A DNA stretch of 64,000 nt, taken from an uncultured virus (IMG/VR IMGVR_UViG_3300029947_000227). Lineage: Duplodnaviria; Heunggongvirae; Uroviricota; Caudoviricetes. How positions within the stretch are numbered: position 1 is the stretch's first letter; each line of letters opens with the position of its first letter. A model generated the notes under the pieces. That model did not search any database. It saw nothing but the letters and a program-made list of their open reading frames with translations, and was not told the origin of the DNA. This document shows, in pieces, positions 1-54,561 of this stretch. A program made the position numbers and the translations under genes. Location of the stretch: the IMG/VR virus record IMGVR_UViG_3300029947_000227, one strand, 5' to 3'.

Positions 1-170
1 CCCGTTTTTATGTACGTACCCCCTCAAAAAAACGGTAGCAGTGTAGCAGTTGGCCTCAGCCCTACGGCGAGTAGGGCCGCGCCGTTACACGGGCGTGTAG
101 CGGAACGGTAGCAGTGTAGCAGTTTTTCAACAGACTGACCCCCATGTGTTCGTTTAAAAGCCGTTTTAGA
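1..170. repeat. Repeat family A, copy 1 (partial, cut by window edge): GGTAGCAGTGTAGCAGT-containing palindromic element
   Basis: 1-123 nearly identical to 23774-23896; weaker similarity continues to ~170; inverted relative to the copy at ~53680-54226. Confidence 0.9.
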
Positions 171-362
171 ACACATGTTCTATTTCTTTCCGCGGGAAGG
201 CAATTCAGAGGCACTTCACAATTCGGAACGATCTGTCTCATATCATGGACGGTTGGCCGAACGGCGACCGACGACCGGAATCGCCGCCGATCAGCCCTCA
301 TACGCCCGAATATTGCAGATTTGCAATTATGCAACCGTGCCGACACGCCGCCGCCGACCGGT

Positions 363-370
363 GACGCATG
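363..370 (+). promoter_or_regulatory. GACGCATG motif, putative extended -10 promoter (first of ~35 copies)
   Basis: GCAT ends exactly 11 nt before ATG 381, no SD; same geometry at many other genes. Confidence 0.7.
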
Positions 371-380
371 ACCGGCGTCC

Positions 381-791
381 ATGAGAATCATCGAGGACAC
401 CAACACCGATCCGATCGCGCCGATCCGTTGGGCCGACTGGCGCGGGGCCATGGCCCGACTCATCGCCCGTCATCGCGGCGCCGCGGCCGGCGAGGCGCTG
501 GCGGACCGGCTCAACGGATCACAGCCCGACCCCAGTGGGCTCGCGGACTGGGCGGACGCCAACTGCCTGTACGTCGTCTCGCGACTCGACGCCATGGCGG
601 CCGGCTCGCGCCGACTGGACGGCCCGTGGCGCCTGAGCGCGCACGGCGAGCCGTACCGTCTGATCGCCGCGGGGCCCGAGTCCGACCCGGAGGGATGGGA
701 GGAGACCTTGCGCCGCGTGGGACGGCCGGCCACCCTCTTCATCACATACGGCACCCCCATCCCCACCCGCCGCATCACCGCCGAGGCATAA
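381..791 (+). CDS. hypothetical protein (136 aa), probably leaderless
   Basis: ORF with GC-rich third positions; motif 11 nt upstream; stop 2 nt before next ATG. Confidence 0.75.
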   Translation: MRIIEDTNTDPIAPIRWADWRGAMARLIARHRGAAAGEALADRLNGSQPDPSGLADWADANCLYVVSRLDAMAAGSRRLDGPWRLSAHGEPYRLIAAGPESDPEGWEETLRRVGRPATLFITYGTPIPTRRITAEA

Positions 792-793
792 CC

Positions 794-3559
794 ATGACCC
801 AAACCCTCTCCGACGCACACCGCAGATTCCTCGTCGAACACGCCATCGATCCGGACATCCTCGCCGAACGCGGCGCCTACACCGCCCAAACCCACAACGA
901 ACTACCCCCACGCATCAACTGCCCGACCCCGGCCCTGTGCTTCCCCCTGGACCGTCTGGACGGTTCGCGCGTCTGGCAGGCCCGCCCCGACCGGCCGCTG
1001 ACCAACGCCGCCGGACGGACCCTCAAATACGTCTCCCAGTGGGGCGAGTCCGGCGTGATCTTCAACGCGTCCGGCCGGAACCGCTGGAAGACGGCCGACA
1101 CGATCCTGTTGACCGAGGGCACCAAGCAGAGCTTCTGCGCCGCCGAATACGCGCCCGACGGCGTGGCCGTCGTGGGCCTGCTCGGCTGCTCGAACTGGAC
1201 GACCGGCGGCAACCCCGCGGCCGGGATCAACGACCTCATCCGCTCCAAGGCGCGCCGCATCGTCGTCGCCTTCGACGCGGACATCCGCACCAACCCGCAC
1301 GTCTGGCGCTCCGCCGCCCTGCTGGGCCGGACCATCGAATCCGCCTCGGAAACCCTGCGCCCCGGACGCCCCCTGGAAGTGCTGTTCAGCACCGTCGCCA
1401 ACGACAAGGGCACCAAGAAAGCCGACATCGACGGCATCCTCGGCACATACACGCCGGCCGAACGGCGCCGCGAAATCAAACGCATCGTCGACGAGGCCGC
1501 GCACCTGCCCGCCTGGGGCAAGGACTCGGACCTGCCGGTGATCGTCCTGCCCGACATGGGACTGACCCTGGCGAACGGCGAGAACGCGGAGCCGCCCTCC
1601 CACATCCCCACGGTCCCGCCCGACGGGGTGGTCATGAACGCCGCCCTGTCGATCGACACCGCCTACCAGTGGATCGCCGACCCGCGCCACCCGGAGCGGC
1701 GCCACCCGGACACCACGCTCGACCTCGACCTGTCGATCTGGCGGTCCGGCCTGCCACCCGAACACCACCTGCTGCGCGGCGAGACATGGACCACCGTCCA
1801 GGACCTCGGCTCCCTCACCCTCAAAGGCTCGGGGCCGGCGGGCCTGACGGTCGTACCACCCGCCAAACCGCTCCTCAAAACCGCGATCCTCGAATCCATG
1901 CGCCGCCGCGCCGACACCGCCCGACTCGTCTACCAAACCCCCCGCACCGGCTGGCAGCGGCACCCCGAAACCGGCCAATGGATGTGGGCGTGCCCCCAAG
2001 GCGCCATCGGCGCCGACGGCTGGGACCGCGACTTCCGCGCCAAAGTCAACGACGTCGTCGGCCGCGTCCACCTGTCATGGCCCGACGAGGCGTCGGACAA
2101 GGAGGCGGCCGAGGCGCTGGTCATGCTCACCGCCGGCCTGCGCCACCTGTTCGCCGAACCCGTCCGCGCCGACGCCTGCCTCGCCGGCTACGCGCTCAGC
2201 TTCCTACCCATCCCACCCAAATGCGCGATCGCCCTGTTCGGCGAATTCAGCAAAGGCAAATCAACCATCATGCAAACCTACTCGGCGCTCCTCAGCCCCG
2301 ACTGGACCCCCAGGACCGGCACCACCGAATTCAACTTCTACGCCACCGAAAACGCCGTCGGCAAATCCATGGACTACGTCGACCACATGCCCGTCTTCTA
2401 CGACGACATGAAAAAACCCACATCCAAAACGGAACGGCAGCGTTTGAACGACACGTTCGACGCGATCGTACGCCGCTGCCACGGCTCCCAGGCCAAAATG
2501 CGCGCCGGCGTCGACCCCGACCGGGGCGTCATCCTCGCCGACCGCGACGACAGCCAACCCCTCGCCTTCATCGTCGGCGAACGCATCCCCTCCGACGCGG
2601 CCGCATCAGCCCTGTCCCGCGTCTTCCAAATCCCCATGCGCTCCGAACTGTCCCTCGCAACAGGCGATACGCTCAACACGCTCCTGTGGGAGGACGACGA
2701 ACCCGGCTCCGCCGCCATCCGCCTCTTCAAAGACCGCTGGCTCCAATCCCAAGGCGGCAGCCACCCGTATGACAAAGACGGCAGCAACACCCTGGAAGGC
2801 TTGTACCGGCTCACCGGATGCGCCGCATGGCGGCGCATCACACCCGCATGGGTCGAATACCTCGCATGCTGCCGCACCCAAACCTGGCCCCTCTCCGACG
2901 AATCCAACACACGCGACTTCCAAACCTATCTCGAAGACCGGCGCGTAGCCTGGTCACGGGCCGTCACCTCGGACCCCCGCTGGCTCGAAGCCAAACGCCA
3001 GGGCGTCCGCCTGTCAACCCGCGAGGCGATCATCGTGGCCTCCATGATGACCGGACTCGAACTGTGGATGCGATTCGCCACCGCATACACGGCCGAACAC
3101 ACGCCCGGACCCCTCGCCGACGAAGTATCCCACATGGCCGGCCAACTCGACACGATCTTCGGCACACTCATCGAAACCCATTTGGCCGGAGCACGCGAAA
3201 ACGAGGGAGACGACACCGGGGAGACGAACATCCTCGACGTGCTGCGCAGCGCCGTCGCATCCGAACGCGCCCGCATCATCGGCCTCGGCTCCGTCCGCGA
3301 ACGCGACTACCGTCCCGTCATCGGCCAGGTCACGACCGTCGACGACGACACCGAAATCGTCGCCATCGACCCGAAAACCGTGATCCGCGAACTCCGACTC
3401 GACATGACCGACCGCGACCTCGTCGACGCATTGGCACCCATAGCGGTCCGCGACAAAGCCGGCCGCGCACGCCGCCCGATTCGCATCAACAAAGTATCCA
3501 CACGGGCCGTGTGCATACCGAAGAACCTGTGGGGGGAGGACGACGATGAAGGATTCTAA
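794..3559 (+). CDS. primase-helicase replication protein (Toprim/DUF3854-like N-terminus + P-loop helicase)
   Basis: Toprim motifs LTEGTKQ and VVAFDAD; Walker A GEFSKGKST; Walker B VFYDD; start MTQTL at 794 chosen over 368. Confidence 0.8.
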   Translation: MTQTLSDAHRRFLVEHAIDPDILAERGAYTAQTHNELPPRINCPTPALCFPLDRLDGSRVWQARPDRPLTNAAGRTLKYVSQWGESGVIFNASGRNRWKTADTILLTEGTKQSFCAAEYAPDGVAVVGLLGCSNWTTGGNPAAGINDLIRSKARRIVVAFDADIRTNPHVWRSAALLGRTIESASETLRPGRPLEVLFSTVANDKGTKKADIDGILGTYTPAERRREIKRIVDEAAHLPAWGKDSDLPVIVLPDMGLTLANGENAEPPSHIPTVPPDGVVMNAALSIDTAYQWIADPRHPERRHPDTTLDLDLSIWRSGLPPEHHLLRGETWTTVQDLGSLTLKGSGPAGLTVVPPAKPLLKTAILESMRRRADTARLVYQTPRTGWQRHPETGQWMWACPQGAIGADGWDRDFRAKVNDVVGRVHLSWPDEASDKEAAEALVMLTAGLRHLFAEPVRADACLAGYALSFLPIPPKCAIALFGEFSKGKSTIMQTYSALLSPDWTPRTGTTEFNFYATENAVGKSMDYVDHMPVFYDDMKKPTSKTERQRLNDTFDAIVRRCHGSQAKMRAGVDPDRGVILADRDDSQPLAFIVGERIPSDAAASALSRVFQIPMRSELSLATGDTLNTLLWEDDEPGSAAIRLFKDRWLQSQGGSHPYDKDGSNTLEGLYRLTGCAAWRRITPAWVEYLACCRTQTWPLSDESNTRDFQTYLEDRRVAWSRAVTSDPRWLEAKRQGVRLSTREAIIVASMMTGLELWMRFATAYTAEHTPGPLADEVSHMAGQLDTIFGTLIETHLAGARENEGDDTGETNILDVLRSAVASERARIIGLGSVRERDYRPVIGQVTTVDDDTEIVAIDPKTVIRELRLDMTDRDLVDALAPIAVRDKAGRARRPIRINKVSTRAVCIPKNLWGEDDDEGF

Positions 3560-5297
3560 CCCCCAACTGCCCGACACACCCGACGCGCCACTCCTGGACA
3601 AACTCGGCTGGTCGAAATTCCTCCTCATCCTGTCCGACTGGGCGAAAACCTGCCGCACCCGGGGCATCCTCCTCGGACCCGGACGCGGTTCCGCGGCCGC
3701 ATCCCCAACCCTCCGCGCCCTCGGCGTCGTCTGCCCCACGCTCCCCGAAACCCCCTGGCAGCGGTTCCTGTCCGGAGGCCGCATCCCCGACATCGACATC
3801 GACGTGGCGTCCAGCCAACGCGCCGACGCGGTCCGCGCGTTCGAAACATGCCTCCCGTCCGGCTGGCGGATGATCACCGGCCTCAACAAGGACGGACGAC
3901 CCGGCACCGGCCTGTTCGCCGTCCCCATGGACGACATGCCCGACACGCGCGACGCACACCTCATGGAACAGGCCGGCCTGTTGAAAATCGACCTGCTACC
4001 CAGTCGTGAACTCGACGCGATCGCCCTCGGCCGCGCCATCACCGCCCACCTGGACGCGTCCATCGGATTCTCCGACTGGACCGGCCAGCCCCGCCATTTG
4101 TTCGTCCCCCGCGCGGGCGTCGACTGGACGCCCCGAGCCCGACCCGAAGACTGGCGAATCGTCAACCAATGCCCCGCCGCGTTCTTCCAACTCACCTCCG
4201 GACGTCTACCCAAACCGATCCGGTCATACGAGGATGCGATGGACGCGATCGCACTCATCCGCCCCGACGCGCACGGCGACCTCATCTACCAGGAGGACGC
4301 CATGGCCCGGCTCGTCGACGCGCATGTCGCCGACTGGGACACCGCCAACCGTTTGCGCCACATGGATCGGGACGAGGCCGAGCCGATCATCAAGGCGGCC
4401 GACAAGGCCGAAGTGGGGGAGGCGGCCCGGTTCCTCAACGGCGGATACGGGTTCTGCCGCGCCCACGCCGCCGCCTACGCGGCCATCCTCGACATGGAGG
4501 CGCGCATCGCCACCGCCAACCCGTACGCGTGGGCGTCCGGCCTGTACGACATCAACCCCGAACGATTCCGCGACGGGCGACTCGACAAGCTCACCGGACC
4601 ATGGACGCCCGACCCCGACCTCGGCGCATTCTTCGGCGGGGTCGCCCACCTGAAAGGCGTCGGGGCGGTCCAGGCGCGCGCCATGCGCATGGGCGAGGCC
4701 GTCAAACTCACCCCCCGCCCCCGAGGCTTCAGGGGACTGGTCCGCGAAATCGCGATCCACGGCACCACGCGCGGCGACAAGCTCTCCGAACGCGTACGAA
4801 ACGTCACCGTCGACCAAACCCCCATCCCCATCTCACAAGCCGCCCTAGAGGCGGCCGGCGCCGCCGACCCGGCTTTAAGCCCCGACCCGAAGGAACGCTG
4901 GACGGCCGGACAACGCGCCAGGGTCGCGAAGGCTTTGGGCGGGGACCCGGGCGACGTGTCGCCGATCATCGGGCCAGGGGAGTGGGCGGCGCTCGACCGC
5001 ATCGCCGACGGCGCGCCCCGCCCCGGCGACGTCGGCATCGCCCGCGCCGCCTGGGGCGTGCCCGACAATCCGCCCGCCCCGCGCGCGCTGAACGCCGAAG
5101 GCGTGGCCCGGCTGAGAAAACTCATGCCCTCCCTTGAGGCCGTCAAACTCAAAACGCTTCTGGAGGACGAGGCGGACGGCAGACTCGACCGGCGCCAGGC
5201 CTCCCAACTGGCCGCCCTGCGGCGCATCGCGAATGGCGAAACCCCACCCAAGGCCGTGCTCGACAAGCTCGAGGCGATCTACGGCAACCCCGTCTGA
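3546..5297 (+). CDS. dnaE: DNA polymerase III alpha (family C)-like protein, short, without PHP domain
   Basis: GPGRGSAAAS, PDIDID, KIDLL, IYQED, GYGFCRAHAAAYA motifs; overlaps primase stop. Confidence 0.8.
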   Translation: MKDSNPQLPDTPDAPLLDKLGWSKFLLILSDWAKTCRTRGILLGPGRGSAAASPTLRALGVVCPTLPETPWQRFLSGGRIPDIDIDVASSQRADAVRAFETCLPSGWRMITGLNKDGRPGTGLFAVPMDDMPDTRDAHLMEQAGLLKIDLLPSRELDAIALGRAITAHLDASIGFSDWTGQPRHLFVPRAGVDWTPRARPEDWRIVNQCPAAFFQLTSGRLPKPIRSYEDAMDAIALIRPDAHGDLIYQEDAMARLVDAHVADWDTANRLRHMDRDEAEPIIKAADKAEVGEAARFLNGGYGFCRAHAAAYAAILDMEARIATANPYAWASGLYDINPERFRDGRLDKLTGPWTPDPDLGAFFGGVAHLKGVGAVQARAMRMGEAVKLTPRPRGFRGLVREIAIHGTTRGDKLSERVRNVTVDQTPIPISQAALEAAGAADPALSPDPKERWTAGQRARVAKALGGDPGDVSPIIGPGEWAALDRIADGAPRPGDVGIARAAWGVPDNPPAPRALNAEGVARLRKLMPSLEAVKLKTLLEDEADGRLDRRQASQLAALRRIANGETPPKAVLDKLEAIYGNPV

Positions 5298-5341
5298 CGG
5301 ACGCAAGATAACGGTGACGTCGCAACCGCAAAAAGCCACCC

Positions 5342-5605
5342 ATGCTTGATCTCACCCTCGCGCCGGACGACGGTCGCATCACCGTCGAACCCGCTTTGGA
5401 ACCCGACGGGCCGGGCCGGCTCAAACTCGTCGACAACATCACCGGCGACCGGCTCCTGCTCGACTGGTGTCGACCCATGCCGGTTACACAGGGGGGGCGC
5501 AAGACCGCGGAGGGGACAATGGGTCTCCTCCGCGGCGACTCCGGTGAAACGCGAACCAAGGTGGATAGGAGAAAGTCTCCAAACGCCGGAATCCCCCGCC
5601 TTTAG
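5342..5605 (+). CDS. small hypothetical protein, C-terminus probably derived from an inserted IS200/IS605 end
   Basis: ORF runs into the IS605-like right-end sequence. Confidence 0.35.
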   Translation: MLDLTLAPDDGRITVEPALEPDGPGRLKLVDNITGDRLLLDWCRPMPVTQGGRKTAEGTMGLLRGDSGETRTKVDRRKSPNAGIPRL

Positions 5606-5623
5606 GCGGGGGGAGGATGTCAA
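5478..5623 (+). mobile_element. IS200/IS605-family right-end remnant (omegaRNA/reRNA-like scaffold, no tnpA/tnpB)
   Basis: ends GGAATCCCCCGCCTTTAGGCGGGGGGAGGATGTCAA (subterminal hairpin + TCAA); upstream GCAAGACC...GTGAAACGCGAACC segments with hairpins. Confidence 0.7.
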
Positions 5624-5641
5624 CGCGCATAGTTTCAAACC

Positions 5642-5932
5642 ATGAGCAGTCTCGACATCGCATCAAACGGATGGACCGCCTTCTGGTCCACCATGTCCGA
5701 ACCCTGGGTCATGGGCATGGTCATGTTCGTCCTCGTCCTCTTCCTCCTCATCGGCTTCGTCCTCCGCTCCACCTACCGCATGGTCAGCATCGCCATGCGC
5801 GTACTGGCCGCACTCGTCGCCACCGTCCTCGTCCTGAGCTTCGCCAACAACATCGGCCTGCCGATCGTCGAATGGCTGCGCACCCTCATCAACATGGCCC
5901 TGACCGCCATGAACGCGCCCATCCTCCTCTAA
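5642..5932 (+). CDS. small membrane protein (2-3 TM)
   Basis: hydrophobic 96 aa ORF; GCGCATAG motif 11 nt upstream. Confidence 0.75.
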   Translation: MSSLDIASNGWTAFWSTMSEPWVMGMVMFVLVLFLLIGFVLRSTYRMVSIAMRVLAALVATVLVLSFANNIGLPIVEWLRTLINMALTAMNAPILL

Positions 5933-5982
5933 CGAGACGCATAACCCGCAACATCCACCCAAACCCCTCCAAAGGAAACAGC

Positions 5983-6903
5983 ATGGCATCACGCAACAGC
6001 GGCGGCCCCCTCAAAACCCTCCTCAACACCATCGCCGGCGGCGTCATGGTCTGCATCCTCCTCATCGTCCTCGTCGCCACCGGCGGATGGAACAGCATCG
6101 CCGACATCTTCGGCCTGCCCAACTCCACCGACAGCAGTGTCGTCCAAGGCGCCGGCGGCCAATGGGACTCCAACAAACCCCACCTGCTCGACTGGCTCAC
6201 CAAACGAACCGACACCAGCGCGCCATCCACCACACCCACCACCGGCACCCCATCCACCGGCACCCCATCCACCGGCACCCCATCCACCGGCACCCCATCC
6301 ACCAACACGCCCGACCCGCACGCCGACTACCAAACCGCCCTCACAAACGCACATGCCCTCAAAGTCGCCGACGCCCGACCCGCCGGCTACGACCGCGAAA
6401 AATACTTCGGCGGCTGGGCCAACAGCCCCACCCTGTGCGGCACCGCCACCACCCGCGACCAAATCCTCGCCCGCGACCTCACCAACACCACATCCGACAG
6501 CCAATGCCGCGTCACCTCCGGCACCCTCAACGACCCATACACCGGCAAAACCATCCAATTCAAACGCGGCGCCACCACCAGCCAAGCCGTCCAAATCGAC
6601 CACGTCGTCGCCCTCCTGGACGCATGGTCGTCCGGCGCGCGCGACTGGACCCAGGAACAACGCGAAACCTACGCCAACGACCCCGACGTACTCCTCGCAT
6701 CAGACGGAACCGCCAACCAAGCCAAAGGCGACGGCGCCGGCATCAAGGACGGCACCGGACGAATCTGGCTGCCCGACAACCAATCCTACCGGTGCGACTA
6801 CTGGGCCAAACGCGTCACAATCAAAACAAAATACGGTCTGACCGTCACCCCATCAGAACAAACCCAAACCATCGACGCGCTCACCGCATGCGCCGCCAAC
6901 TGA
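5983..6903 (+). CDS. membrane-anchored/secreted HNH-type nuclease (DUF1524-like)
   Basis: N-terminal TM; YDREKYFGGW, TRDQILARDL, DPYTG, IDHVVAL, YANDP, NQAKGD motifs; SD AAGGA. Confidence 0.85.
   Translation: MASRNSGGPLKTLLNTIAGGVMVCILLIVLVATGGWNSIADIFGLPNSTDSSVVQGAGGQWDSNKPHLLDWLTKRTDTSAPSTTPTTGTPSTGTPSTGTPSTGTPSTNTPDPHADYQTALTNAHALKVADARPAGYDREKYFGGWANSPTLCGTATTRDQILARDLTNTTSDSQCRVTSGTLNDPYTGKTIQFKRGATTSQAVQIDHVVALLDAWSSGARDWTQEQRETYANDPDVLLASDGTANQAKGDGAGIKDGTGRIWLPDNQSYRCDYWAKRVTIKTKYGLTVTPSEQTQTIDALTACAAN
6241..6303 (+). repeat. 15-bp coding tandem repeat ACCGGCACCCCATCC x4 (TGTPS linker)
   Basis: directly visible. Confidence 0.95.
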
Positions 6904-6918
6904 CGCATGGGAAACCAC

Positions 6919-7128
6919 ATGAAAAAAACCTACCGTCGCAACACCACCGCCCACACCACGATCAACGGGCACGCCGTCACCATCCACCTCACCCAATTCA
7001 AATACCGGATGGCAACCCTCGAATTCCGATACCGCCGCCACCTCTTCCGCTGCATACGCAAAACCGGCACCGACAACCGGATCGAACTCTACCCCCACGT
7101 CACACTCACACCCGCCGACTTCACATAA
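6919..7128 (+). CDS. small basic hypothetical protein
   Basis: TGACGCATG motif 10 nt upstream of ATG 6919. Confidence 0.6.
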   Translation: MKKTYRRNTTAHTTINGHAVTIHLTQFKYRMATLEFRYRRHLFRCIRKTGTDNRIELYPHVTLTPADFT

Positions 7129-7162
7129 GACAACACCCCCCAAACAGGCGTCCGCCGTCCGA

Positions 7163-7627
7163 TCAGCCCAACGTCCCCGCCCACTCGGACGCCAACGCCA
7201 CCGGATCATCGCATTTGACAAATCCCGAACCAAACCGCCCCGAACGCGTCCGCCACTCAAGATCCACCCCACCATCCACCAGCTCATAACGAGTCACCGT
7301 CAACGCATCCGCATACCCCGCCGCATGCGCCACATCCGCCATCAAATCACGCGACACGCCCCGCACCGCGCGCGCACGAACACCAGCCGCCACACGCCGA
7401 CGAACCTCAACGGCCAACCCAACCGCATCCACCCCCGCCGCCGACCCGTCACACGCCTCCCACGACCCATCAACCAACACAGCCGCATCCACAACACGCG
7501 AAACATGTACGACAAACAACCCACCCGACGCGAACGACGGACGAATTTGCCAACACACGCCCAAAACATCCACGGACGCGACGAAAACATCACGATAACA
7601 GGCAATCAAACTCTTGGTATCAGTCAT
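7163..7627 (-). CDS. hypothetical protein (MTDTKSLIAC...)
   Basis: GACGCATG on minus strand 11 nt before ATG 7627. Confidence 0.6.
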   Translation of the reverse strand: MTDTKSLIACYRDVFVASVDVLGVCWQIRPSFASGGLFVVHVSRVVDAAVLVDGSWEACDGSAAGVDAVGLAVEVRRRVAAGVRARAVRGVSRDLMADVAHAAGYADALTVTRYELVDGGVDLEWRTRSGRFGSGFVKCDDPVALASEWAGTLG

Positions 7628-7815
7628 ATGCGCACACCATGCGTCACCCACCGACGGACGCATAGAACCCACCGGACGCGTCAACGCCACCCCTGTTCGG
7701 CGGGGTTTCTCTTCCCCCACCGAACTCAAAAAAAGGGGAACGAAGACGGGAGAGCGGGAGGTTTTTTTCACCTTCCTCCTGCCAAGACCCCGCCTGCGCG
7801 ACCACACGGAAACCA

Positions 7816-7849
7816 CTCCTAGTGGACGCATAGACGCGTCCACTAGGAG
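7816..7849 (+). promoter_or_regulatory. 14-bp perfect hairpin overlapping a promoter motif (arm/loop) and the SD of the CHAP gene (3' arm)
   Basis: CTCCTAGTGGACGC-ATAGAC-GCGTCCACTAGGAG. Confidence 0.7.
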
Positions 7850-7861
7850 GGTCCCGCCACT

Positions 7862-8581
7862 TTGAAACACGCAACCGTCACACGCCGCCAACTACGCCGC
7901 CGCCAACACCACCAACGCCGCATCGCACTCATCCTGCTCGCACTCCTCGCCACCCCACTCACCACAGCCGGCGCATGGGCCGCCACCACCGAACCCGACG
8001 GCGCAGCCTTCGACACCACCACCGCCGTCACCTCATCCACCCTAGCCGGCGCTTCACGCTCCGCCACCCGCACCACCACCATCACCGGCACCGGCGACTG
8101 GGGAGGCATCGAAACCATCACCGGCGACACAACCCGCCAAGCCGCCGACAACCCCACCGTCGCCAAACTCATCACCAGCCGCGACCGCGACAGCATCCCC
8201 ACCGGCTTCAACCCCAACCACCCAACACAAGACACCGGCTCCACATACTCATACAGCCAATGCACCTGGTGGGCATACACACGCCGCCACCAACTCAACC
8301 TCCCCGTCGGATCCCACTACGGCAACGGCCACCAATGGGCAGACACCGCCCGACAACTCGGCTACTGGGTCGACAACACCCCCCGCGTCGGAGACATCAT
8401 GGTCTTCCAACGCGGACAGGACGGCGCATCACCCATCTACGGACACGTCGCCATCGTCGAACAAGTCAACCCCGACGGTTCCATCGACACATCCGAATGC
8501 GGAGCCAGCCGCCACGGCACCCCCTTCACCCGCCACTTCGACGCCACCAACGCCAGCCAACACCAATTCATCCACTACTAG
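7862..8581 (+). CDS. secreted CHAP-domain peptidoglycan hydrolase
   Basis: signal peptide; YSQCTWWA, GNGHQWA, YGHVAIVEQV, SE motifs. Confidence 0.9.
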   Translation: MKHATVTRRQLRRRQHHQRRIALILLALLATPLTTAGAWAATTEPDGAAFDTTTAVTSSTLAGASRSATRTTTITGTGDWGGIETITGDTTRQAADNPTVAKLITSRDRDSIPTGFNPNHPTQDTGSTYSYSQCTWWAYTRRHQLNLPVGSHYGNGHQWADTARQLGYWVDNTPRVGDIMVFQRGQDGASPIYGHVAIVEQVNPDGSIDTSECGASRHGTPFTRHFDATNASQHQFIHY

Positions 8582-8583
8582 CC

Positions 8584-10460: not shown

Positions 10461-10484
10461 TGCGTCGGCGCATAGCGCCGACGC

Positions 10485-41828: not shown

Positions 41829-41850
41829 GAGGAAGGATGTGACGTGCAGG

Positions 41851-46273: not shown

Positions 46274-49078
46274 TTAGCGGTTGCGGCGGCGGGCCACTTC
46301 GACGCCTCCCAGTCCGAGGGTCAGGGCGGCGAGGGTGATGAGCGCCGGGCGGGTGATGTCGGCGCCGGTGTGGGCCAACGCCCCGGTGGAGTCGCCGTTG
46401 GACGCGGTGCCGGAGGCTGCGGTGTCGTTGGTTGAGCCAGTGCCGGCGTCAGAGGTCTTGTCGTACGCCTGTTGGATCGCATCCTGTTCACGCTGCGACT
46501 GGTCGTATTCGCTCTGCGCCTGATCGTAAGCCTGCTGCGCCTTGTCGAGTGCGGTGCGAGTCTGCTCAGCACGCGCCTTGGCCTCCTCGAGTTTGGCTTT
46601 GGCGGCGTCCACACCCGGCTGCGCTTCCTTGACGGCCTGATCGTAAGCCTGCTGGGCGGCGGCAAGCTCCTGCCGTGCGGTTTCGTCGGCCTTCTTCGCG
46701 TTTTCCAACGCGGCGGCGGCGGTCTGCGCGTCCGTTTCAGCGGACTGGCGGGTCTTCACGGCGGCCTGGTAGGAGGTTTGGGCGGCGGTCAGCGCGTTGA
46801 TCGCACTGGTGAGCTCGTCCTTCGCCTTGTTGGCGGCGTCCACGTCGGCCTGCGCGTCCGACAGGGCCTGAGACGCCTTGTCGTGGGCCGTGGTCGCGTC
46901 GGACAGGGTCTTGTTGGCCTCGTCGAGCATGGTCTTCGCCTCACTGGCCTTGGCCTGCGCGTCCGACAGGGTTTTCTGCGCGTCGGCGAGAGCCTGCGCC
47001 GCGTTCTTCAGATCGTCAACGTGCTGGCGTGCCTCGCTGGCGGCATCCTGGGCCTGTTTGTATGCTACCTGCGCGGTTTCAAGGGTCTTGGCGGCCTCGT
47101 CGGCGGCGGCGGACGCCTGCGTGTACCGGTCGGACGCCTGCTTGGCGGCGGTTTCGGCTTCGGTCTGAGTGTTGGCAGTCTCGTCGGCCTTCTGCTTCAG
47201 ATCCTTGAGCGTGCCGTTCGCCTCGCTGGCGGCCTGTTCGGCGGCCTTCAACGCGGCCTGCGCGTTCGACTGGGCGGTGAGCTTCTGCTTCAAGGTCGCC
47301 TGCGTGGAGGTCACGCGCCCGGCAGCCTCGGTTTGCGCGGTCTTCGCCTGGTCGGCCTTCTGCTGGGCGGCGTCGAGAGCCTTCAACGCGGCCTGATAGT
47401 TCGCGGACGCGTTCTCGATCTTCGCACGATACGCTTTGATGCGGGCGCGATACTGGTCGGTCGTGTACCCGCCGGTCCCGGACTGGTAGTTCTGGGTCCA
47501 GGCGCCACCGAGAGCACCGCTCATGCCGGTCAGCGTGGCGGACGGGTCGACGAAGTTGATGTAGTGGCCGGCGTTGGCGTAATCGCCCTCATCATAGTTC
47601 ACCTTCTCCTGCGTGTACCAGAGGTCATAGGGGTTTTTCGCCAAGGCGAAGTTCTGGGACGAGCCGTTGAGCAGATACCAGTGGGTGTTCCCGTCGATGT
47701 CCGTGTAGAGGTCCTTGTCGGTGGTCAACTGGGCGGCGGCGGTCAACGCGTCGTCAACCTTCAATTCCGGCAGGCCGAGCGACCGGCGGATCTCGTTGCC
47801 CTTGTCGATCATGTCGAGCGCGGCGAGCATGTTGTCCAAGCTTGTGGCGGACCCCGAGTCGCCGACCTTGTTGCCGGCGTCACCGATATGCTTCTTCAAA
47901 AAATCGTAAACGGTCTGACCCTGATAGTCGTAGCTGATGACACTGTTCGCATCCTTGAAGAATCCGAGCGAACTGTTCGCCTCCGCACTGTCCGACTCGT
48001 CGGCCAAAGCCTTCGCATCCTCAACCGTTTTCTTCGCGGCCTGAAGCGCCTGATTCGCTTCCTCGGCGGCCTTGTCCGCGGCGGCCTTGTCGGCGTTCGC
48101 CTGGTCGGCGGCCTCCTGCGCGGCCTTCGCGTCCGCGTCGGCGGCGTCCTTGGCCTTGCGGGCCGCCTCCACGTCGGAGGAGGATGCGGCCAGAGCCTTG
48201 TCGTAGGCGGCGCGCGCCTCGTCGGCCTTCGCCTTCGCGTCCTTCGCGGCCTGGTTCTTCGCCTCGGCGTCCTTCCTCGCGTCGGCGGCGGCCTGGTCCT
48301 TCGCCTCGGCGTCCGACTTGGCCGCGTCGACCGTATTCTTCGCGGTCTCGGTCTTCTTGTCCGCCTCGTCGGCCTTCGCCTCGGCGTTGGCGATGCCGTC
48401 GCCCTTTGCCTCCTCGGCGAGCGATTCAGCCTGCTTCACCCGGTCGGCAGCGTCGGACGCGTTCCGGTCGGCGTCGGACTTCGTCTTGCTGGCGGACTCC
48501 TGCGCCTCCTGGGCCTGATTCTGCTTGGCGGCGGCGGTCTGCTCGTCCTTCTTCAACTGGTTCATGTCATGCTTGGAGGCCGTCTGGCTGGCCGAGTCGC
48601 TGTTCTTCTGCGCCTCGTCCTTCGCGCTCTGCGCCTTGGACACGTTGTCCTTGGCGGCGGCCTCCGCCTTCTTCGACTCGTCGACCTTCGCCTTCGCGTC
48701 CGAATCGGCCTTCGCGGCTTCGGTCAGCTTCGCCTCGGCGGCGGTCAGAGCAGCCTGCTTCTCGTCGACGGTTTTCTTGGTGCTGGTGACCTTCTCGGTG
48801 TTCTGCGCCTTGGACACGTTGTCCTCAGCGGTCTTCACGTCGGACTGGGCCTTGTCGTCGGCGTCCTTGGCGACCTGGAGCGCCTTCTTCGCCTCGTCGA
48901 CCTTCTCCTGTCCGGCGGCGGTCGACGACTGGGTGGAGGCGACAGCCTTGGCGGCCTGGTCGACGGCCTCGTCGAGCTGACGGCCGGTGTCGTCGGCGGC
49001 GAATGCGGGCACGCCTCCCAAAGTAGCGCCCGCAGTCAGCGCGGTGGCGATCGCCGCGGCTTTGAAGTTCTTACGCAT
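46274..49078 (-). CDS. second sortase-anchored coiled-coil surface protein with CAP/SCP domain (paralog of 37680-41693)
   Basis: ATSLDNML.ALD.ID.GN..R.SLGLPE shared; WYTQEK, GHYIN; LAHTG. Confidence 0.9.
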   Translation of the reverse strand: MRKNFKAAAIATALTAGATLGGVPAFAADDTGRQLDEAVDQAAKAVASTQSSTAAGQEKVDEAKKALQVAKDADDKAQSDVKTAEDNVSKAQNTEKVTSTKKTVDEKQAALTAAEAKLTEAAKADSDAKAKVDESKKAEAAAKDNVSKAQSAKDEAQKNSDSASQTASKHDMNQLKKDEQTAAAKQNQAQEAQESASKTKSDADRNASDAADRVKQAESLAEEAKGDGIANAEAKADEADKKTETAKNTVDAAKSDAEAKDQAAADARKDAEAKNQAAKDAKAKADEARAAYDKALAASSSDVEAARKAKDAADADAKAAQEAADQANADKAAADKAAEEANQALQAAKKTVEDAKALADESDSAEANSSLGFFKDANSVISYDYQGQTVYDFLKKHIGDAGNKVGDSGSATSLDNMLAALDMIDKGNEIRRSLGLPELKVDDALTAAAQLTTDKDLYTDIDGNTHWYLLNGSSQNFALAKNPYDLWYTQEKVNYDEGDYANAGHYINFVDPSATLTGMSGALGGAWTQNYQSGTGGYTTDQYRARIKAYRAKIENASANYQAALKALDAAQQKADQAKTAQTEAAGRVTSTQATLKQKLTAQSNAQAALKAAEQAASEANGTLKDLKQKADETANTQTEAETAAKQASDRYTQASAAADEAAKTLETAQVAYKQAQDAASEARQHVDDLKNAAQALADAQKTLSDAQAKASEAKTMLDEANKTLSDATTAHDKASQALSDAQADVDAANKAKDELTSAINALTAAQTSYQAAVKTRQSAETDAQTAAAALENAKKADETARQELAAAQQAYDQAVKEAQPGVDAAKAKLEEAKARAEQTRTALDKAQQAYDQAQSEYDQSQREQDAIQQAYDKTSDAGTGSTNDTAASGTASNGDSTGALAHTGADITRPALITLAALTLGLGGVEVARRRNR

Positions 49079-49238
49079 GAGAAACGAACCTTTCTTCCGG
49101 ATTTGTCGTGACGCCATCGCTTATGCGTCCATGTCCATTCATCCCCTATACCAGTCACATCCCCGGTCGGGCAATCCACGGACCGGAACGTGGACGCATA
49201 AGCGAGACGCCATCCAGCCGCGTCAAGGAGCATGCCCC

Positions 49239-50302: not shown

Positions 50303-51322
50303 ATGGCAGACGTTTTCAACCCAATGGACCCGAAATGGTGGCCGGCTGGCGCAAGACTCGACTTCTGGGACATCACCGCACTGCATGAGGCAGGCCGACA
50401 CCCCGCATGGCTGGCCGACCCCCGGACGGCCACGCGGCGGCTCGACCACGCGCGCACGCTCAAAGCACTCGGACTCATCCACTCGCACCGCACCGTCACC
50501 ACCGGGCAACTGCACCGCCTCGACCCCACTCTCCCCGCCAGTCCAGCGGCCGGCCTGTGGAACGATCTCATGGCCTGCCGTCTGATCGAACTGGGCTTCC
50601 CCATCGCCTTGAACGGGCGGACGGGCCGTTCGCCGAGGACTGGCATGTTCATGGCGTGCCGCCTGCCCATCCACCTTGATGTCACCCAACGGCTCGCGGA
50701 ACTCGGGTTCAACCCGTTCGAAATCGCCTCCCTGGGGCCGGGCCCGCTGCGGGGCGCCCGCCAGTACGACCGGCATAATCTGATCTGCGCGGAACTGTCC
50801 GCCAGGTTCCGGGTGGCCGGATGGCGGACCATGGGCGAGGCGTGGGGGCGGTTCGACTTGCTGTTCGACGATCCGACGGCGGGGCGCGGCGGCCCCGACC
50901 TTGAACTCGTCCGCAATGACGGGCTGGTCGTCGCCGTGGAGGCGACGGCCACGGTCACCGGCATCGACGAGAAGATCCGCCGTTGGAACCGGCTGCTCGC
51001 CGTCCACCCGGACGCGGGGGTCGCCTGCGTGTGGCTCGACTGCTCCACCCAGGACAACGAGAGCGCCGTGAAGGCGGCTTTGGCGCGCATACCGGGCGCG
51101 GCGGGGCGGATGCGCGTCGCCTCCGCCCGCACGTGGCTGGACGGGCGGTTGGGCGTGCTGGCTGACGGGTCGACGCTCGACATGCTGTCCGGGCCGGGCA
51201 GGCCGCGTGTCGACCCGTCCGGGTGGATGGGTCGTGAGACCGCGCAGCTGGCCGCCCGGTTTGGCCTTGACGCGACCCGCTGGCGTCGCCCGGCGCCTCT
51301 GGCGGGCGGCTGCTGGGCTTAG
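50303..51322 (+). CDS. replication-relaxation-like (wHTH + PD-(D/E)XK) protein, candidate relaxase
   Basis: RTVTTGQL, RHNL, PDLELVRNDGLVVAVE, KIRRW. Confidence 0.6.
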   Translation: MADVFNPMDPKWWPAGARLDFWDITALHEAGRHPAWLADPRTATRRLDHARTLKALGLIHSHRTVTTGQLHRLDPTLPASPAAGLWNDLMACRLIELGFPIALNGRTGRSPRTGMFMACRLPIHLDVTQRLAELGFNPFEIASLGPGPLRGARQYDRHNLICAELSARFRVAGWRTMGEAWGRFDLLFDDPTAGRGGPDLELVRNDGLVVAVEATATVTGIDEKIRRWNRLLAVHPDAGVACVWLDCSTQDNESAVKAALARIPGAAGRMRVASARTWLDGRLGVLADGSTLDMLSGPGRPRVDPSGWMGRETAQLAARFGLDATRWRRPAPLAGGCWA

Positions 51323-51345: not shown

Positions 51346-51624
51346 ATGAGCAGTGACATGTTGGACACGCAGATCAGACGGACGGCGCGCAGGATGGCGG
51401 ACCATGGCGACCTTGAGTCGATGGCCCGGCTGTTGGATCGCGCCAGGGCCGAGCTGACGGTGCTGGAACGCGCGCGGAGGATCGTGGACCGTCTGCCGGA
51501 CGATGAGCGCGAGACTGTGTTGGAGGCGGTGAGATACGCTTCGGATTATGGGTTGAGTCTGGATGGTCAGATCGAGTTGAGGCGGCTGGTGGAGCCGGTG
51601 GTGCGACTGGCCGCGGCCTCATGA
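51346..51624 (+). CDS. hypothetical protein
   Basis: motif at 51325, SD GGAG. Confidence 0.65.
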   Translation: MSSDMLDTQIRRTARRMADHGDLESMARLLDRARAELTVLERARRIVDRLPDDERETVLEAVRYASDYGLSLDGQIELRRLVEPVVRLAAAS

Positions 51625-51630
51625 CCGTCG

Positions 51631-51668
51631 AAAAAAGACCTCCTGGTGAAACCGGGGGGTCTTTTTTG
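51631..51668. terminator. bidirectional intrinsic terminator
   Basis: AAAAAAGACCTCCTGG-TGAAA-CCGGGGGGTCTTTTTT. Confidence 0.8.
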
Positions 51669-51843
51669 ATGTTTGGACGATGTCGTCGTCATGCATCACG
51701 GGGGGGATGGGGGCGGCGCGAACGATGAGGGGGTGGCCGCCCCCCCTGTTGGGGTGGAACCGGAAGGTAAGGTTGGATACCGGTTCCACCCGCCATCATG
51801 CGTCCGGCGACGGTTCGGATGACGTCGAGCCGTCGCCGGACGC

Positions 51844-52680
51844 TCATGAGACGGGGTTGGCGGTGGCTTCCCGTTGGTCGGCGAGGATGCGGGCGGCTTG
51901 TTCGACGGTCCGCGGGTCGAGTCCCATGTCCAGCAGGTCGGTGGGTTTGAGGGCTCGGAGACGGTCGAGCGCGGCCCGGCGGTCGCCGGGCGTGGAGTTG
52001 ATGAGGCGGGCGAGATCGCCCTCCTGGGTTTCGATGTGCGCTTCGGCGTCGGCGGCGAGGTCGCGTCGTTCGGTGGCGTCCTGGGAGCCGAGTCCCTCCT
52101 CGGCGCGCAGGGATGCGAAGAATTCGTTGACGCAGTGCTCGTACCATGCGCGCCCGTTGGCCCAGGGGCCTTTCGCGATGGGGCGGATGTCGGCGTGGGG
52201 GTTGCTGGTGCCGCCGTCGGCGAGCCTGGGGTAGCGTCCGGCGTTGGGGTGCGTGTCGGCCCATTCGCTGATCGCCTTGTCCCAGATTCTGTCGCGTTCG
52301 GCGGGTGTGGGGCTGCCGTTGACGGCGGCCCGGTATTTGGCCAGTGCTGGCTCGTAGATTTTGCCGGCGCGGATGTAGGTGGCGGGGAATCCGTGCGACT
52401 GCATCCACCGTTCGAGGTGGATGCGGCGGATGGTGGCCGCGTACCAGGCCATGGCGGGGATGATGTTCTTTTTCTTGGCGAGGCGGGTGGCGTCGCGGAC
52501 GGCTTTGTCGATGAGGTCGAGTGCGATTTCCTCGGCGCGTTGGGGGTTGTGGACGTAGCGGTTGATTTTGCCGGCGAGGCTTGACGGGTTGCGCGGGTTG
52601 GAGGCCCATTTGATGAGCCGGTCCCATTTTTGCTGGTCGGCGGTGGATAGTGGATGGTATTGCGTGTTTGTTTTGTTCAC
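51844..52680 (-). CDS. putative sigma-70-like factor A (regions 2-3, no obvious region 4), 278 aa
   Basis: GTG 11 nt after GACGCATA; WYAATIRRIHLERWM...GFP...R.G...A...Y...VNGSPTPAE; paralog of 52750-53511. Confidence 0.55.
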   Translation of the reverse strand: MNKTNTQYHPLSTADQQKWDRLIKWASNPRNPSSLAGKINRYVHNPQRAEEIALDLIDKAVRDATRLAKKKNIIPAMAWYAATIRRIHLERWMQSHGFPATYIRAGKIYEPALAKYRAAVNGSPTPAERDRIWDKAISEWADTHPNAGRYPRLADGGTSNPHADIRPIAKGPWANGRAWYEHCVNEFFASLRAEEGLGSQDATERRDLAADAEAHIETQEGDLARLINSTPGDRRAALDRLRALKPTDLLDMGLDPRTVEQAARILADQREATANPVS

Positions 52681-52749
52681 GGTTATGCCGTATGCGTCGC
52701 GGCGTGTCGGGGCGCATAGCGGGTGTTGTTCGACCGGTTGGGAGGTGTC

Positions 52750-53511
52750 ATGGGCGTGTATGACGAGGCGAGGCATCCGCGTGAGCAGCGGACGGGACGG
52801 TATCGGGACAGCGACCGGTTTCGCGCGGTCATGGATCGTGATTTGGAGGCGGCGGGTTTGGACCGGTCGGCGGTCTGGGATGTGTCGCGTCTGGCCGCGT
52901 CCGAGGGCGAATGGGTGGGTGAGGAGGTGCTTGACTGTTCGTCCCGGGAGGGTTTGGCTGAATATGATCGGATTCTTGATGCGGCGGTGCAGAGCCTGAC
53001 CCATAAGGTCGCGCGGTTCGTTCCGGCGGGCGCGGCGGGTGATGCGGCTCGGGCTGCCGTGGAGCATGTGGCGTTCGAGGCGCGGATTACGTGCGCGACG
53101 AGGTCGGATCGTTGTTTTTCGGCCCGGTATTTGGCTGCGGCGGTGCGGCGGACTTCGGTCGAGCGTGAGATGAAGTATCAGAATGATGAGATCAATGTGG
53201 CGTGGGTGCGTCAGGGGGATGCGTATATTCGCGCGCGTGACGGGTGGGTGGCGTCTCATCATGGGGCGTTTCCGCCGGCGGATGTGCGTGATCGGCTTTG
53301 GGATGAGGCGGTTACGGAGAAGTGGGAGCGGACGGTTGCGTCGACTAGGTCGGTTCCTCGTCTGGTGGTGCCGTTGTCGGATGGTCGCAGTGTGAATCCG
53401 AGGGGTCGCGTGTTTGGGTTCAATGGTCGGGAGCGGTTTGAACGGTTGATGGCGGATATGGCTTCCCGGGCGGGGTTTGAGCGGGATGTCAGTGAGGTGC
53501 GTTCGCTGTAG
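52750..53511 (+). CDS. putative sigma-70-like factor B (paralog of A), 253 aa
   Basis: GGCGCATAG at 52711, SD GGAGG; FSARYLAAAVRRTSVEREM...HHGAFPPADVRDRLWDEA. Confidence 0.55.
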   Translation: MGVYDEARHPREQRTGRYRDSDRFRAVMDRDLEAAGLDRSAVWDVSRLAASEGEWVGEEVLDCSSREGLAEYDRILDAAVQSLTHKVARFVPAGAAGDAARAAVEHVAFEARITCATRSDRCFSARYLAAAVRRTSVEREMKYQNDEINVAWVRQGDAYIRARDGWVASHHGAFPPADVRDRLWDEAVTEKWERTVASTRSVPRLVVPLSDGRSVNPRGRVFGFNGRERFERLMADMASRAGFERDVSEVRSL

Positions 53512-53679
53512 GTTGGCGTGTTACATGTAACATGTTTTTTGCTTGTTTTGTGTTTTTTTGGCGTGGTGTCTGCCGGTTGGGCGGGGTGTTGGGGGCTTGG
53601 CCGATGTTTGTGATGGAATCGTGAAGATGTGAAGGAATTGTGAAAACGTTGATTCCGTTAACGATTCGAACGGATGTGC

Positions 53680-54226
53680 TAAAACCGTCGTTGAATCGAC
53701 ACTTCGACCCCATGGTGTTCATAAACTGCTACACCGCTACCGAGGTGAAACACGCGAATGTAGCAGTTTAGCCCTACTCCCCGTAGGGCTGAGGCCGACT
53801 GCTACACTGCTACCGAAATTTTGGGGGGGTACGTATGGAAAAAGGGGCGCATACCCCGATTTTTTTACGCGTACCACCCAAAAAAACGGTAGCAGTGTAG
53901 CAGTAGCCACCAATCCCTTACGGCAGTAGGGCTAAACTGCTACACCCCGCTGTAGCGGTCCTGTAGCAGCAGGCCCTCAGCCCTACTGACAGTAGCGCTA
54001 CACGCTGTAGCACCCCGGAAACCGGCCGGACGGCCGCACCCGGGGCCGTTTCCGGCCGACTTTCCGGGTCGCCAGACAGCCCCGGGCGAAAACCTCGGTC
54101 CCGGCCCCACGCAAAACCCCCACATGCCCCTGAGAGCCATTCTTTGGCCCCTCTAACGCGGGAAAACCCAAAACACGGAAAAGTGCCCACGGCCCCCCAT
54201 CAAGCCACGCGGAAACCTCGCTTTTT
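53680..54226. repeat. Repeat family A, copy 3 (inverted relative to copies 1 and 2)
   Basis: reverse complement matches 23395-23940, e.g. GAGGGGCCAAAGAATGGCTCTCAGGGGCATGTGGGGG and GGCTGTCTGGCGACCCGGAAAGTCGGCCGGAA. Confidence 0.9.
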
Positions 54227-54561
54227 TCGGCTTTTTCGGGGAATTAACGATTTTTTATCACTTTTCAAGCGGAAAAAACAACAAAATAATTAACGTTTTC
54301 CAGGCCAAAACCTTGCGATAATTACCGCATGAATTACATGACAATACGCAAACGATATCCACTCGAACGAATGGAACATATTCACCGCAATTAACGGTTA
54401 ATTAATACGCGAACATTTCTGAATACGCAAAGTCATTATGAAAAAATAAGCGTGGGAATTTCACAAAAATCTAATCAATTGAAATATCGGGAAAATCATC
54501 CATGGCTTCCCGCCGATCCGCCCGGCTCGCGCCGGACGCCTGACGCATAGCACCCGGCGTC

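Follow-up and report, generated by a model that had tools for sequence, protein, structure and literature searches.

Strand skew is a standard guide to the origins of bacterial replicons, in which it normally amounts to a few percent and turns at two points. What process, then, would make a strand bias that empties silent sites of two bases, reshapes the encoded proteins and changes sign again and again within 54 kb of plasmid-like DNA? The question is raised by record IMGVR_UViG_3300029947_000227 of IMG/VR, filed as an uncultured virus, of which a stretch of 64,000 nucleotides (nt) was analysed as a whole (hereafter the window; the strand as given is the + strand). With a G+C content of about 65%, the window appears from its predicted proteins to be part of a conjugative megaplasmid-like element, distant kin of the Bifidobacterium plasmid pMP7017. 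Two families of dispersed repeats, here called A and B, punctuate its first 54 kb, and the order A(0)-B(9 kb)-A(23.7)-B(36)-A(54), proposed in an earlier note made from the sequence by eye, is borne out by sequence matches among the copies. The bias, its independence of gene direction and its coincidence with the repeats, strong at B and local at A, are observed directly; for their cause, DNA synthesis that leaves B is put forward tentatively.

A strand bias independent of gene direction

Over all bases, the raw skew of the + strand per kilobase is -0.37 to -0.39 for GC and +0.40 to +0.58 for AT at 6-9 kb, and -0.45 and -0.41 for GC with +0.46 and +0.68 for AT at 34-36 kb; GC skew has the opposite sign at 37-39 kb (+0.25, +0.23) and at 52-54 kb (+0.29, +0.25). 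At silent sites the bias was read on the + strand as keto skew (G and T against C and A), using the 10,901 four-fold degenerate sites of genes that had been called from composition and curated by hand, with Pfam support and independently of any annotation. From A0 to B9 this skew is -0.52 in + strand genes (n = 1543) and -0.72 in minus-strand genes (n = 100), from A23.7 to B36 it is -0.43 (n = 1727) and -0.41 (n = 443), and from B36 to A54 it is +0.17 (n = 1074) and +0.28 (n = 1851), that is, in three intervals the genes on both strands carry one + strand bias. From B9 to A23.7 the values are -0.10 for + genes and +0.08 for minus genes, and only TA skew is flipped (+0.47 and +0.64, respectively), not GC skew.

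Single genes make the extent of the bias plain. At the four-fold sites of the + strand CHAP hydrolase gene (7862-8581) the counts are A30 C111 G1 T2, and in 34082-35227 they are A46 C138 G7 T3; read likewise on the + strand, the minus-strand dnaN gene (30212-31351) has A55 C125 G56 T4, and the minus-strand open reading frame (ORF) 7163-7627 carries the + strand bias of its surroundings. Right of B36, the + strand genes 36211-37023 (parA-like; A12 C52 G68 T32) and 37002-37391 (A3 C11 G41 T22) lean the other way. The extremes of GC skew are -0.45 over all sites and -0.98 at four-fold sites. The earlier note had described the + strand as C/A-rich between A and B even across minus-strand genes (7163-7627, dnaN), and the four-fold skews, which agree between gene strands, uphold this; the extremes that it had placed at 5.6-8.7 and 34-35.5 kb are found at about 5983-8748 and 34082-35540. 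Its complementary claim, of a G/T-rich + strand between B and A, stands for the interval from B36 to A54 and for patches left of the A copies and fails from B9 to A23.7, where TA alone flips, and the exception that it had made for 15-20 kb is real (keto skew -0.17 to -0.47).

In a site-level regression the effect of the coding strand is -0.055, beside interval effects of -0.48, -0.04, -0.39, +0.23 and +0.03, and the intervals explain threefold the variance explained by gene strand (R2 0.085 vs 0.028); when the interval boundaries are shifted circularly, 9 of 1000 placements explain as much. In bins of 120 sites, 20 of the 90 bins have an absolute keto skew above 0.5, with a maximum of 0.92, and the highest value in 2000 shuffles is 0.48. 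The proposed independence of skew from coding strand thus survives the correction. An artefact of coding strand, of codon usage or of the composition of repetitive proteins has practically no probability left. It is true that at the four-fold sites of pMP7017 skew follows the coding strand only (about -0.13), with no strand-specific component, and that the coiled-coil genes of the window (37680-41693 and 46274-49117) are strongly biased in composition, but the two gene strands are alike in three intervals, the coding-strand effect is the one just given and the bias extends to non-coding DNA. In the A-to-B intervals and in the stretches 36.2-43 kb and 51.3-53.7 kb the explanation is refuted.

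The bias is mutational and tied to the DNA strand, because it is found also in non-coding DNA, in protein composition and in a pair of divergent paralogs. Non-coding keto skew is +0.46 in the 318 nt left of A23.7 (23077-23394), +0.40 left of A54 (53512-53690), -0.10 to -0.13 right of A23.7 and A54, and -0.89 in the B arrays. Keto skew also shifts gradually within the single ORFs 37680-41693 and 15028-23076, in the latter from -0.47 at 19 kb to +0.33 at 22-23 kb. The paralogs 51844-52680 (minus strand) and 52723-53511 (+ strand), of no known family and 26% identical over 199 amino acids (E 1e-8), are divergently oriented under one + strand bias and so have opposite codon and amino-acid habits. 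Compared with their homologues in pMP7017, the CHAP and GmrSD-like proteins gain Pro, Thr, His, Gln, Asn and Lys (42 gained vs 18 lost, and 43 vs 26, respectively), and the products of the minus-strand gene 29254-30288 and of the + genes right of B36 shift oppositely, toward Gly, Val, Trp, Cys, Phe and Leu. This shift tracks the DNA strand, not the direction of the gene, and is clear in two of the four + genes of the C/A-rich zones, in the one minus-strand gene and in both + genes right of B36.

Over the first 54 kb, then, one strand has lost G and T and its partner C and A, the mutation spectrum being mirrored on the opposite strand right of B36. What is seen is a bias of transitions specific to the strand: where a strand turns G/T-rich, C has given way to T and A to G. 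A bias of this sort is the mark of a strand that either is frequently unpaired or is replicated with another spectrum of errors. The dinucleotide context at four-fold sites revealed no deaminase-like preference, the loss of G and T being similar in all contexts; the spectrum fits deamination of an exposed strand and equally fits asymmetric errors of the polymerases that copy the two strands.

Related loci, 10 of them in genomes and 52 in metagenomes, all at most 44% identical, are seldom biased to this degree: 4 of the 62 have any 1-kb segment with an absolute keto skew above 0.35, and a Mobiluncus locus is the only one with as many such segments as the window. In the Mobiluncus contig the four-fold keto skew is mostly +0.2 to +0.6 over a related conjugative element (1-62 kb) and about 0 in the chromosome beyond, and a gene on the strand opposite to its neighbours (33597-34751) reaches +0.86 (A6 C7 G103 T76). 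Because this element is strongly biased beside a chromosome at about 0, the bias is made by the element and not by the host. No tandem array was found in the Mobiluncus locus at the place matching that of the window.

The turning points and the A and B repeats

From the left, the + strand is C/A-rich from 368 to 9248, with keto skews of -0.22 to -0.65 and then, from 6.2 kb, of -0.75 to -0.87. A stretch of weak skew (9684-21800; +0.18 to -0.47, TA flipped and GC not), with a VirB4-like ATPase gene, a methylase gene and most of a surface-protein gene, is followed by a G/T-rich patch left of A23.7 (21800-23394), which takes in the last 1.3 kb of the surface-protein gene and the 318 non-coding nt. 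The second C/A-rich domain (23940-36210) includes the minus-strand genes 29254-30288 and dnaN. Right of B36 lies a G/T-rich domain (36211-43350), in which keto skew is +0.30 to +0.58 up to 40.4 kb, +0.18 to +0.27 after it and about 0 from 43.4 kb, and a further G/T-rich patch left of A54 (51346-53690; +0.43, +0.68 and +0.75) holds the divergent paralogs. From 54226 to 64000 there is little strand-specific skew and its sign mostly follows the coding strand; a turn near 59.7 kb has no B element. The middle parts of the B-to-A intervals, with genes of surface proteins, sortase and acyltransferase, have little bias, as would suit cargo that is younger or has been exchanged.

When the four-fold sites are segmented optimally, the strongest change point falls at 36306 and the second at 9359, each of them at the first silent site to follow a B element and within about 230 nt of the array ends; later change points are 27522, 5934, 40872, 33958, 51516, 54730 and 59694. 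The one at A54 (54730) appears from the seventh change point on, and A23.7 is never picked by this segmentation, the switch there being based on the rise from -0.47 to +0.33 within the surface-protein gene, on the G/T-rich 318 nt and on the drop to -0.13 after A. In the cumulative curve over all sites, the minimum at 36309 (B36), with a prominence of 3040, is the sole outstanding turn. Both C/A-rich domains start at A, steepen toward B and stop abruptly at its right edge; the G/T-rich domain that starts to the right of B36 dies away within about 7 kb, and the patches left of A23.7 and A54 extend over 1.5-2.4 kb. The A switches are real but local and statistically weaker than those at B, so that the coincidence of skew extremes with the repeats, as the earlier note had it, is strong at B (36306, 9359) and weak and local at A. 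That the flip at B36 arose by simple inversion was rejected: on both sides of B36 the four homologues of a pMP7017 operon all lie on the + strand, yet with opposite skew.

The B copies are direct repeats of one build. B9 (8719-9248, + strand) has a conserved part of 134 nt (8719-8852, 94% identical to 35611-35744), an A-rich tract (8749-8891), a tandem array (8892-9034) and a conserved right flank with a hairpin; in B36 (35611-36210, + strand) the A-rich tract is at 35654-35782 and the array at 35783-36064. The arrays consist of 17-nt units, 8.4 copies in B9 and 16.4 in B36 (97% and 93% matches), and are free of T on the + strand (A82 C53 G8 T0 and A162 C104 G16 T0, respectively), each unit being made of A and C only plus a single G. 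The A-rich tracts, of 129-143 nt, have 37% G+C in B9 and 33% in B36, in an element of 65%. B thus has the build of an iteron origin, in which tandem 17-mers adjoin a low-G+C tract. B36 lies directly upstream of the parA-like gene, which starts 146 nt after the array, and behind B9 the same position is taken by a gene for a protein of 144 amino acids (9249-9683). In pMP7017, an A-rich, T-poor tract of about 400 nt (52654-53260) lies upstream of a parA-like gene; it contains words like CACAGAAACC that recall the B unit and has no tandem array. Homology of this tract with B was rejected, the matches being of low complexity alone (60-76%), and what is claimed is likeness of composition.

The A element measures about 535 nt, 23395-23929 being an inverted copy of 53691-54225 (82% over 538 nt). 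A23.7 (23395-23939, + strand) comprises an a-arm (23395-23651), an imperfect palindrome (23652-23887, centred at about 23769.5) and a b-extension; A54 (53691-54225) is a full element on the minus strand, inverted relative to A23.7; and A0 (1-167, + strand) is the visible half, the b-arm, which matches 23774-23939 at 92% and, over 1-123, 23774-23896 at 99%. The arms of the 236-nt palindrome are 68% complementary and its 15-nt centre is not palindromic; as single-stranded DNA it folds with -77.7 kcal/mol (z -10 vs shuffles). The 15-mer GTAGCAGTGTAGCAG occurs 12 times at up to 3 mismatches, vs 0.47 expected, and 11 of the 12 sites are inside A copies. Exact sites are at 35 and 108 in A0 and at 23718 (minus), 23808 (plus) and 23881 (plus) in A23.7; each full A has one inverted and two direct exact 15-mers around the imperfect palindrome centre, and CTTCACAHTTC motifs stand after every b-arm. 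By this layout A looks like a trap for replication forks, a site of recombination or a hairpin site of single-stranded DNA.

Sites like AATTAATTAACG (6 vs 0.6 expected) are clustered in AT-rich DNA at 24147-24248 and 54284-54407, to the right of both A23.7 and A54 despite the inverted A cores. The A core looks like a cassette able to sit either way in a similar setting. The record begins 4 nt right of the position that matches the A23.7 palindrome centre, and this start is better explained by the b-arm being a near-identical part of a repeat. A reading of A as a hairpin telomere, the target of a protelomerase, was rejected, since the palindrome is imperfect and Pfam gave no match to a resolvase family among 44 window proteins.

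Replication from B and the competing explanations

As a rule, the lagging-strand template or a displaced strand turns G/T-rich. By the deamination rule it would be the minus strand that is exposed to the left of B and the plus strand to its right, and these would be the strands displaced, or used as lagging-strand templates, if synthesis leaves B. Because the rule points away from B and B is built like an iteron origin, it is possible, at something less than an even chance, that DNA synthesis diverges from B and converges on A, in several short replichores or in a cointegrate. B would then be a start point, an iteron-type origin beside a partition locus, probably with a long displacement-loop or strand-displacement phase that is most marked leftward, and A a place where synthesis converges or stops. 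The unusual strength of the bias could come from genes that the element itself carries, namely those that are primase-like and DnaE-like and that of the beta clamp. The switches in the stretch would then number at least two of the start-like kind and two to three of the stop-like kind, and the stretch would consist of replichores of 9-18 kb within a single molecule or else be a cointegrate of replicons. Here we infer three things together: that replication is the cause, which repeat starts and which stops it, and that all units lie on one molecule. The earlier note had argued that the usual sign of skew would favour B as origin and the architecture A; the sign at B is indeed origin-like by the usual rule, and the argument for A fails, since B is equally built like an iteron origin. 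B is the better candidate of the two for start sites, and an origin/terminus reading is plausible, if unproven. Its most specific form, a multi-origin plasmid in which identical iteron origins (B) fire at once and forks meet at palindromic convergence sites (A) under an own strand-displacing replisome, is unlikely; in it, a strand would be single-stranded for so long that the bias at silent sites exceeds that of mitochondria.

A number of observations weigh against synthesis from B toward A. No Rep-type initiator was found among the 44 proteins scanned with Pfam or the 31 scanned with NCBIfam and PHROGs, nor, with Pfam, a RepB (RepA_C) initiator of pMP7017 type; the window is only part of the replicon, and the neighbours of the B arrays are family-less proteins and parA. 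Matches to the DnaA-box consensus number 13 vs 16.4 expected, without a cluster. The position of B36 fits the type Ib centromere/operator of a par locus, and B36 may be simply that; the A-rich tract of pMP7017, too, occurs beside its parA-like gene although the mapped origin is about 65 kb off. There is no net G/T excess between B9 and A23.7, and the prominences of the cumulative turns near A, 360 at 24700 and 381 at 53678, do not exceed what block shuffles produce (mean 276, maximum 544). A strong patch lies left of both A23.7 and A54 despite their inverted cores, and because it is on the left in both orientations of A, a simple polar barrier there fails to explain the bias. With B as origin, most backbone genes of the A-to-B intervals would be head-on to the forks, and a displacement model predicts the least bias beside A, where the observed bias is high. 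To our knowledge, naturally multi-origin bacterial replicons are not established, and the related Mobiluncus element has one sign only. In pMP7017, according to its description, one iteron origin near repB has been experimentally defined, and two skew switches are taken by its authors as origin and terminus (PMC8313286); the 20-mer iteron consensus given there differs from the B 17-mer. Calibration of the skew sign on the mapped origin of pMP7017 failed, because this plasmid has no strand-specific part of skew.

If the roles of the repeats were reversed, with A as origins and B as termini or barriers, the skew sign would be opposite to the usual rule, as may happen if asymmetric polymerase error and not single-strand deamination makes the bias; errors through G·T mispairs, if made on one template, would deplete it of G and T. 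Forks from A would be co-directional with most genes of the A-to-B intervals (8 of 9 and 8 of 10 on the + strand), the A palindrome folds very strongly and comes with repeated 15-mer and 11-mer sites, and an AT-rich region with repeated sites adjoins A23.7 and A54. However, G/T-rich leading strands are a near-universal rule, the largest and sharpest jumps are at B, not at A, and the bias is at its weakest immediately to the right of A, although an effect that depends on closeness to an origin should be strong there; reversed roles are regarded as quite improbable. In keeping with the Mobiluncus element, essentially of one sign over 62 kb beside an unbiased chromosome, would be a bias caused by single-stranded conjugative transfer or rolling-circle copying, a single sign being the pattern reported for rolling-circle replicons (PMC2804667). 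The sign changes would then be joints between modules brought together by recombination at or near A and B, each module having gained its bias in another orientation or another element. The bias is indeed patchy, with step-like edges at the gene borders 5934, 33958 and 51516, the gene order is scrambled relative to pMP7017, and the 30 kb between A23.7 and A54, which are inverted repeats of each other, could invert. Such a history is nonetheless rather unlikely: the homologues of ParA, Y, X and the ATPase keep their orientation across B36 while the skew flips, an inversion between A23.7 and A54 cannot make the flip at B36, and B9 and B36, as direct repeats, cannot mediate one. The gradual change inside ORFs argues for a position-dependent process that is still acting, and one kind of switch at both B copies would be a coincidence.

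The alternation might also come from the record itself, if the contig chains separate smaller replicons that have A in common, each with one B, one A and an ordinary pattern of extreme strength; unit 1, for instance, would be a 23.8-kb circle closing a-arm to b-arm. The 99% match between 1-123 and 23774-23896 is of the kind that misleads short-read assembly, the record starts at the b-arm, and one predicted window protein is identical to a collection entry, which would fit a metagenome assembly. Against this, unit 1 (A0-A23.7), with the primase-like, DnaE-like and VirB4 genes, and unit 2 (A23.7-A54), with the exonuclease, dnaN, ParA and SLT-CHAP hydrolase genes, have no paralogous backbone genes in common. 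Because of this and of their complementary functions, gene content would favour parts of one element over a chain of similar plasmids. In addition, VirB4 and the hydrolase with its neighbour gene, adjacent in pMP7017, are split between the units, and unit 2, bounded by inverted A copies, cannot close in the same way; chaining is given a low probability. Very improbable is selection for a strand of A and C only that avoids palindromic restriction sites and secondary structure near sites of DNA entry or opening. Such a strand cannot fold or hold palindromes, the extreme patches abut cis sites and the arrays are free of T, but the bias is found in four-fold sites, in non-coding DNA and in amino acids alike and fades gradually over kilobases, and the element has methylases of its own.

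Gene content, relatives and significance

Among the conjugative megaplasmids of actinobacteria the window is a rare and distant member, because the identities of its VirB4-like protein are low, 15 of 44 window proteins have homologues in pMP7017 (B. breve; 24-48% identity, VirB4 30%) and near relatives are sparse. A search with the VirB4-like protein gave 19 matches, the best at 93% (on an 8-kb contig) and the next at 51-53% and below; its identity is 29-32% with proteins of megaplasmids from Bifidobacterium, Curtobacterium and Arthrobacter-group bacteria (14 records) and about 40% with loci in Bifidobacterium genomes. The backbone in common with pMP7017-type megaplasmids comprises the VirB4-like ATPase, the ParA-X-Y-ATPase genes, hydrolases, a sortase and surface proteins. 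Megablast of 1-20000 against phage and plasmid records gave no match, nor did a distant-mode blastn search of plasmids with A (23395-23940) or with the right flank of B. In viral contigs, 17-mers from A and B recur exactly at 4 and 15 loci, where similarity to the window ends at the 17-mer.

The left part of the window encodes a primase- or polymerase-like protein of 1063 amino acids (368-3559; PHROG matches at residues 142-375) and, overlapping it by 14 nt, a DnaE-like fragment of 583 amino acids that begins with the palm part (PF07733; 3546-5297); together they resemble a split or rebuilt plasmid polymerase. A sequence search of the PDB gave no match for 368-3559, 3546-5297 or 31380-33779. 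A GmrSD_C-type nuclease is encoded by a long ORF from 5617, with a start more likely near 5983: the first 120 codons (5617-5982) give a His-, Arg- and Pro-rich text unlike protein, and the biased zones are rich in long false ORFs, by which composition-based gene calling is misled. The CHAP hydrolase gene and B9 are followed by the gene 9249-9683 (+ strand), which has an ATG with AAGGAGA upstream and no family match in the NCBIfam and PHROGs scans. Between it and the VirB4-like AAA_10 ATPase gene (10485-13049), the non-coding DNA at 9684-9935 is predicted to fold as RNA with -110.8 kcal/mol (z -3.7) into several tight hairpins, with no match in Rfam. In the repetitive surface protein of 2682 amino acids (ORF 15028-23076), about six tandem units of 351-363 nt occupy 16871-19057, and this young-looking repeat part falls just where the skew deviates from its B-to-A sign. 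Pfam recognizes two DNA methylases in the window, one of them in 9684-21800, and supports the beta clamp encoded by dnaN.

The parA-like gene (+ strand) encodes 270 amino acids that match CbiA/ParA in Pfam below curated cut-offs and a ParA-like PHROG with E 5e-7; the ORF of 129 amino acids behind it (37002-37391, + strand) has no family match and a homologue in the par operon of pMP7017. In that plasmid the ParA-like protein, X, Y and an AAA ATPase are encoded by one operon (52.6 to 47.3 kb), and their homologues in the window (31380-33779, 36211-37023, 37002-37391 and 50303-51322) are spread over 20 kb, all on the + strand, with B36 and 13 kb of surface-protein genes between them. The other called genes encode a PD-(D/E)XK exonuclease, an SLT-CHAP hydrolase, a VRR-NUC nuclease, a sortase, an acyltransferase and two paralogous coiled-coil proteins, one with a CAP domain. 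For 34082-35227, a protein atlas gave weak leads alone (scores 0.78, TM below 0.4). Rfam and tRNA scans of the window found nothing.

Among known systems, the skew of theta replicons such as pMP7017 is alike in that the sign turns at cis elements, one with repeats by an AT-rich tract, and, pMP7017 itself excepted, in its independence of gene direction at silent sites, but a replicon then has two shift points, whereas at least four to five lie within 54 kb here. The asymmetry of the heavy and light strands of vertebrate mitochondrial DNA is classically ascribed to time spent single-stranded in strand-displacement replication. That case, too, has a strand nearly free of G at silent sites (here of T as well) through transitions, graded and independent of genes, yet with one sign around the circle, unlike the alternation found in this bacterial plasmid of 65% G+C. 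The saw-tooth profiles of multi-origin genomes (human N-domains, archaea) share upward jumps at start sites and a sloping return; they are of small amplitude and belong to eukaryotes and archaea, whereas in the window the fall at A is abrupt and the wave squarer, weakened at cargo genes. The footprint of DNA polymerase I by the ColE1 origin is a one-sided gradient over kilobases, comparable to the patches of 1.5-3 kb left of B, although it is an experimental result with an error-prone enzyme and not an evolved composition. Iteron origins and type Ib centromeres have tandem repeats like the 17-mers here, an A-rich tract and a site upstream of a small parA; unlike them, B has two dispersed copies, one without parA, an array whose units have just one G each besides A and C, and no rep gene in sight. 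Rolling-circle plasmids are reported to have a strong bias made by the element independently of the host chromosome (PMC2804667), and the Mobiluncus element fits this; the window differs in having shift points, and no rolling-circle Rep or relaxase was found in its 64 kb among the same 44 and 31 proteins. Typical skew, by the figure in the SkewDB abstract, is about 2.5% (PMC8941118), and that of the window is far larger. In the literature searched, no such pattern is described for conjugative plasmids. Skew that turns at cis elements is of a known kind; as far as these searches show, it is not known at this strength, with so short a period or bound to two families of dispersed repeats in a bacterial plasmid.

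If the turns are starts and stops, the element would be a bacterial replicon in which several origins and fixed sites of termination occur naturally, and it would have an unusual mode of replication, perhaps strand displacement by plasmid enzymes, so that its sequence would record fork direction at kilobase resolution. If transfer or module history is the cause, the window nonetheless reveals that some actinobacterial conjugative elements have a very strong mutational asymmetry of their own. Such an asymmetry can mislead gene callers and origin predictors, and it may be used to read the DNA metabolism of the element.

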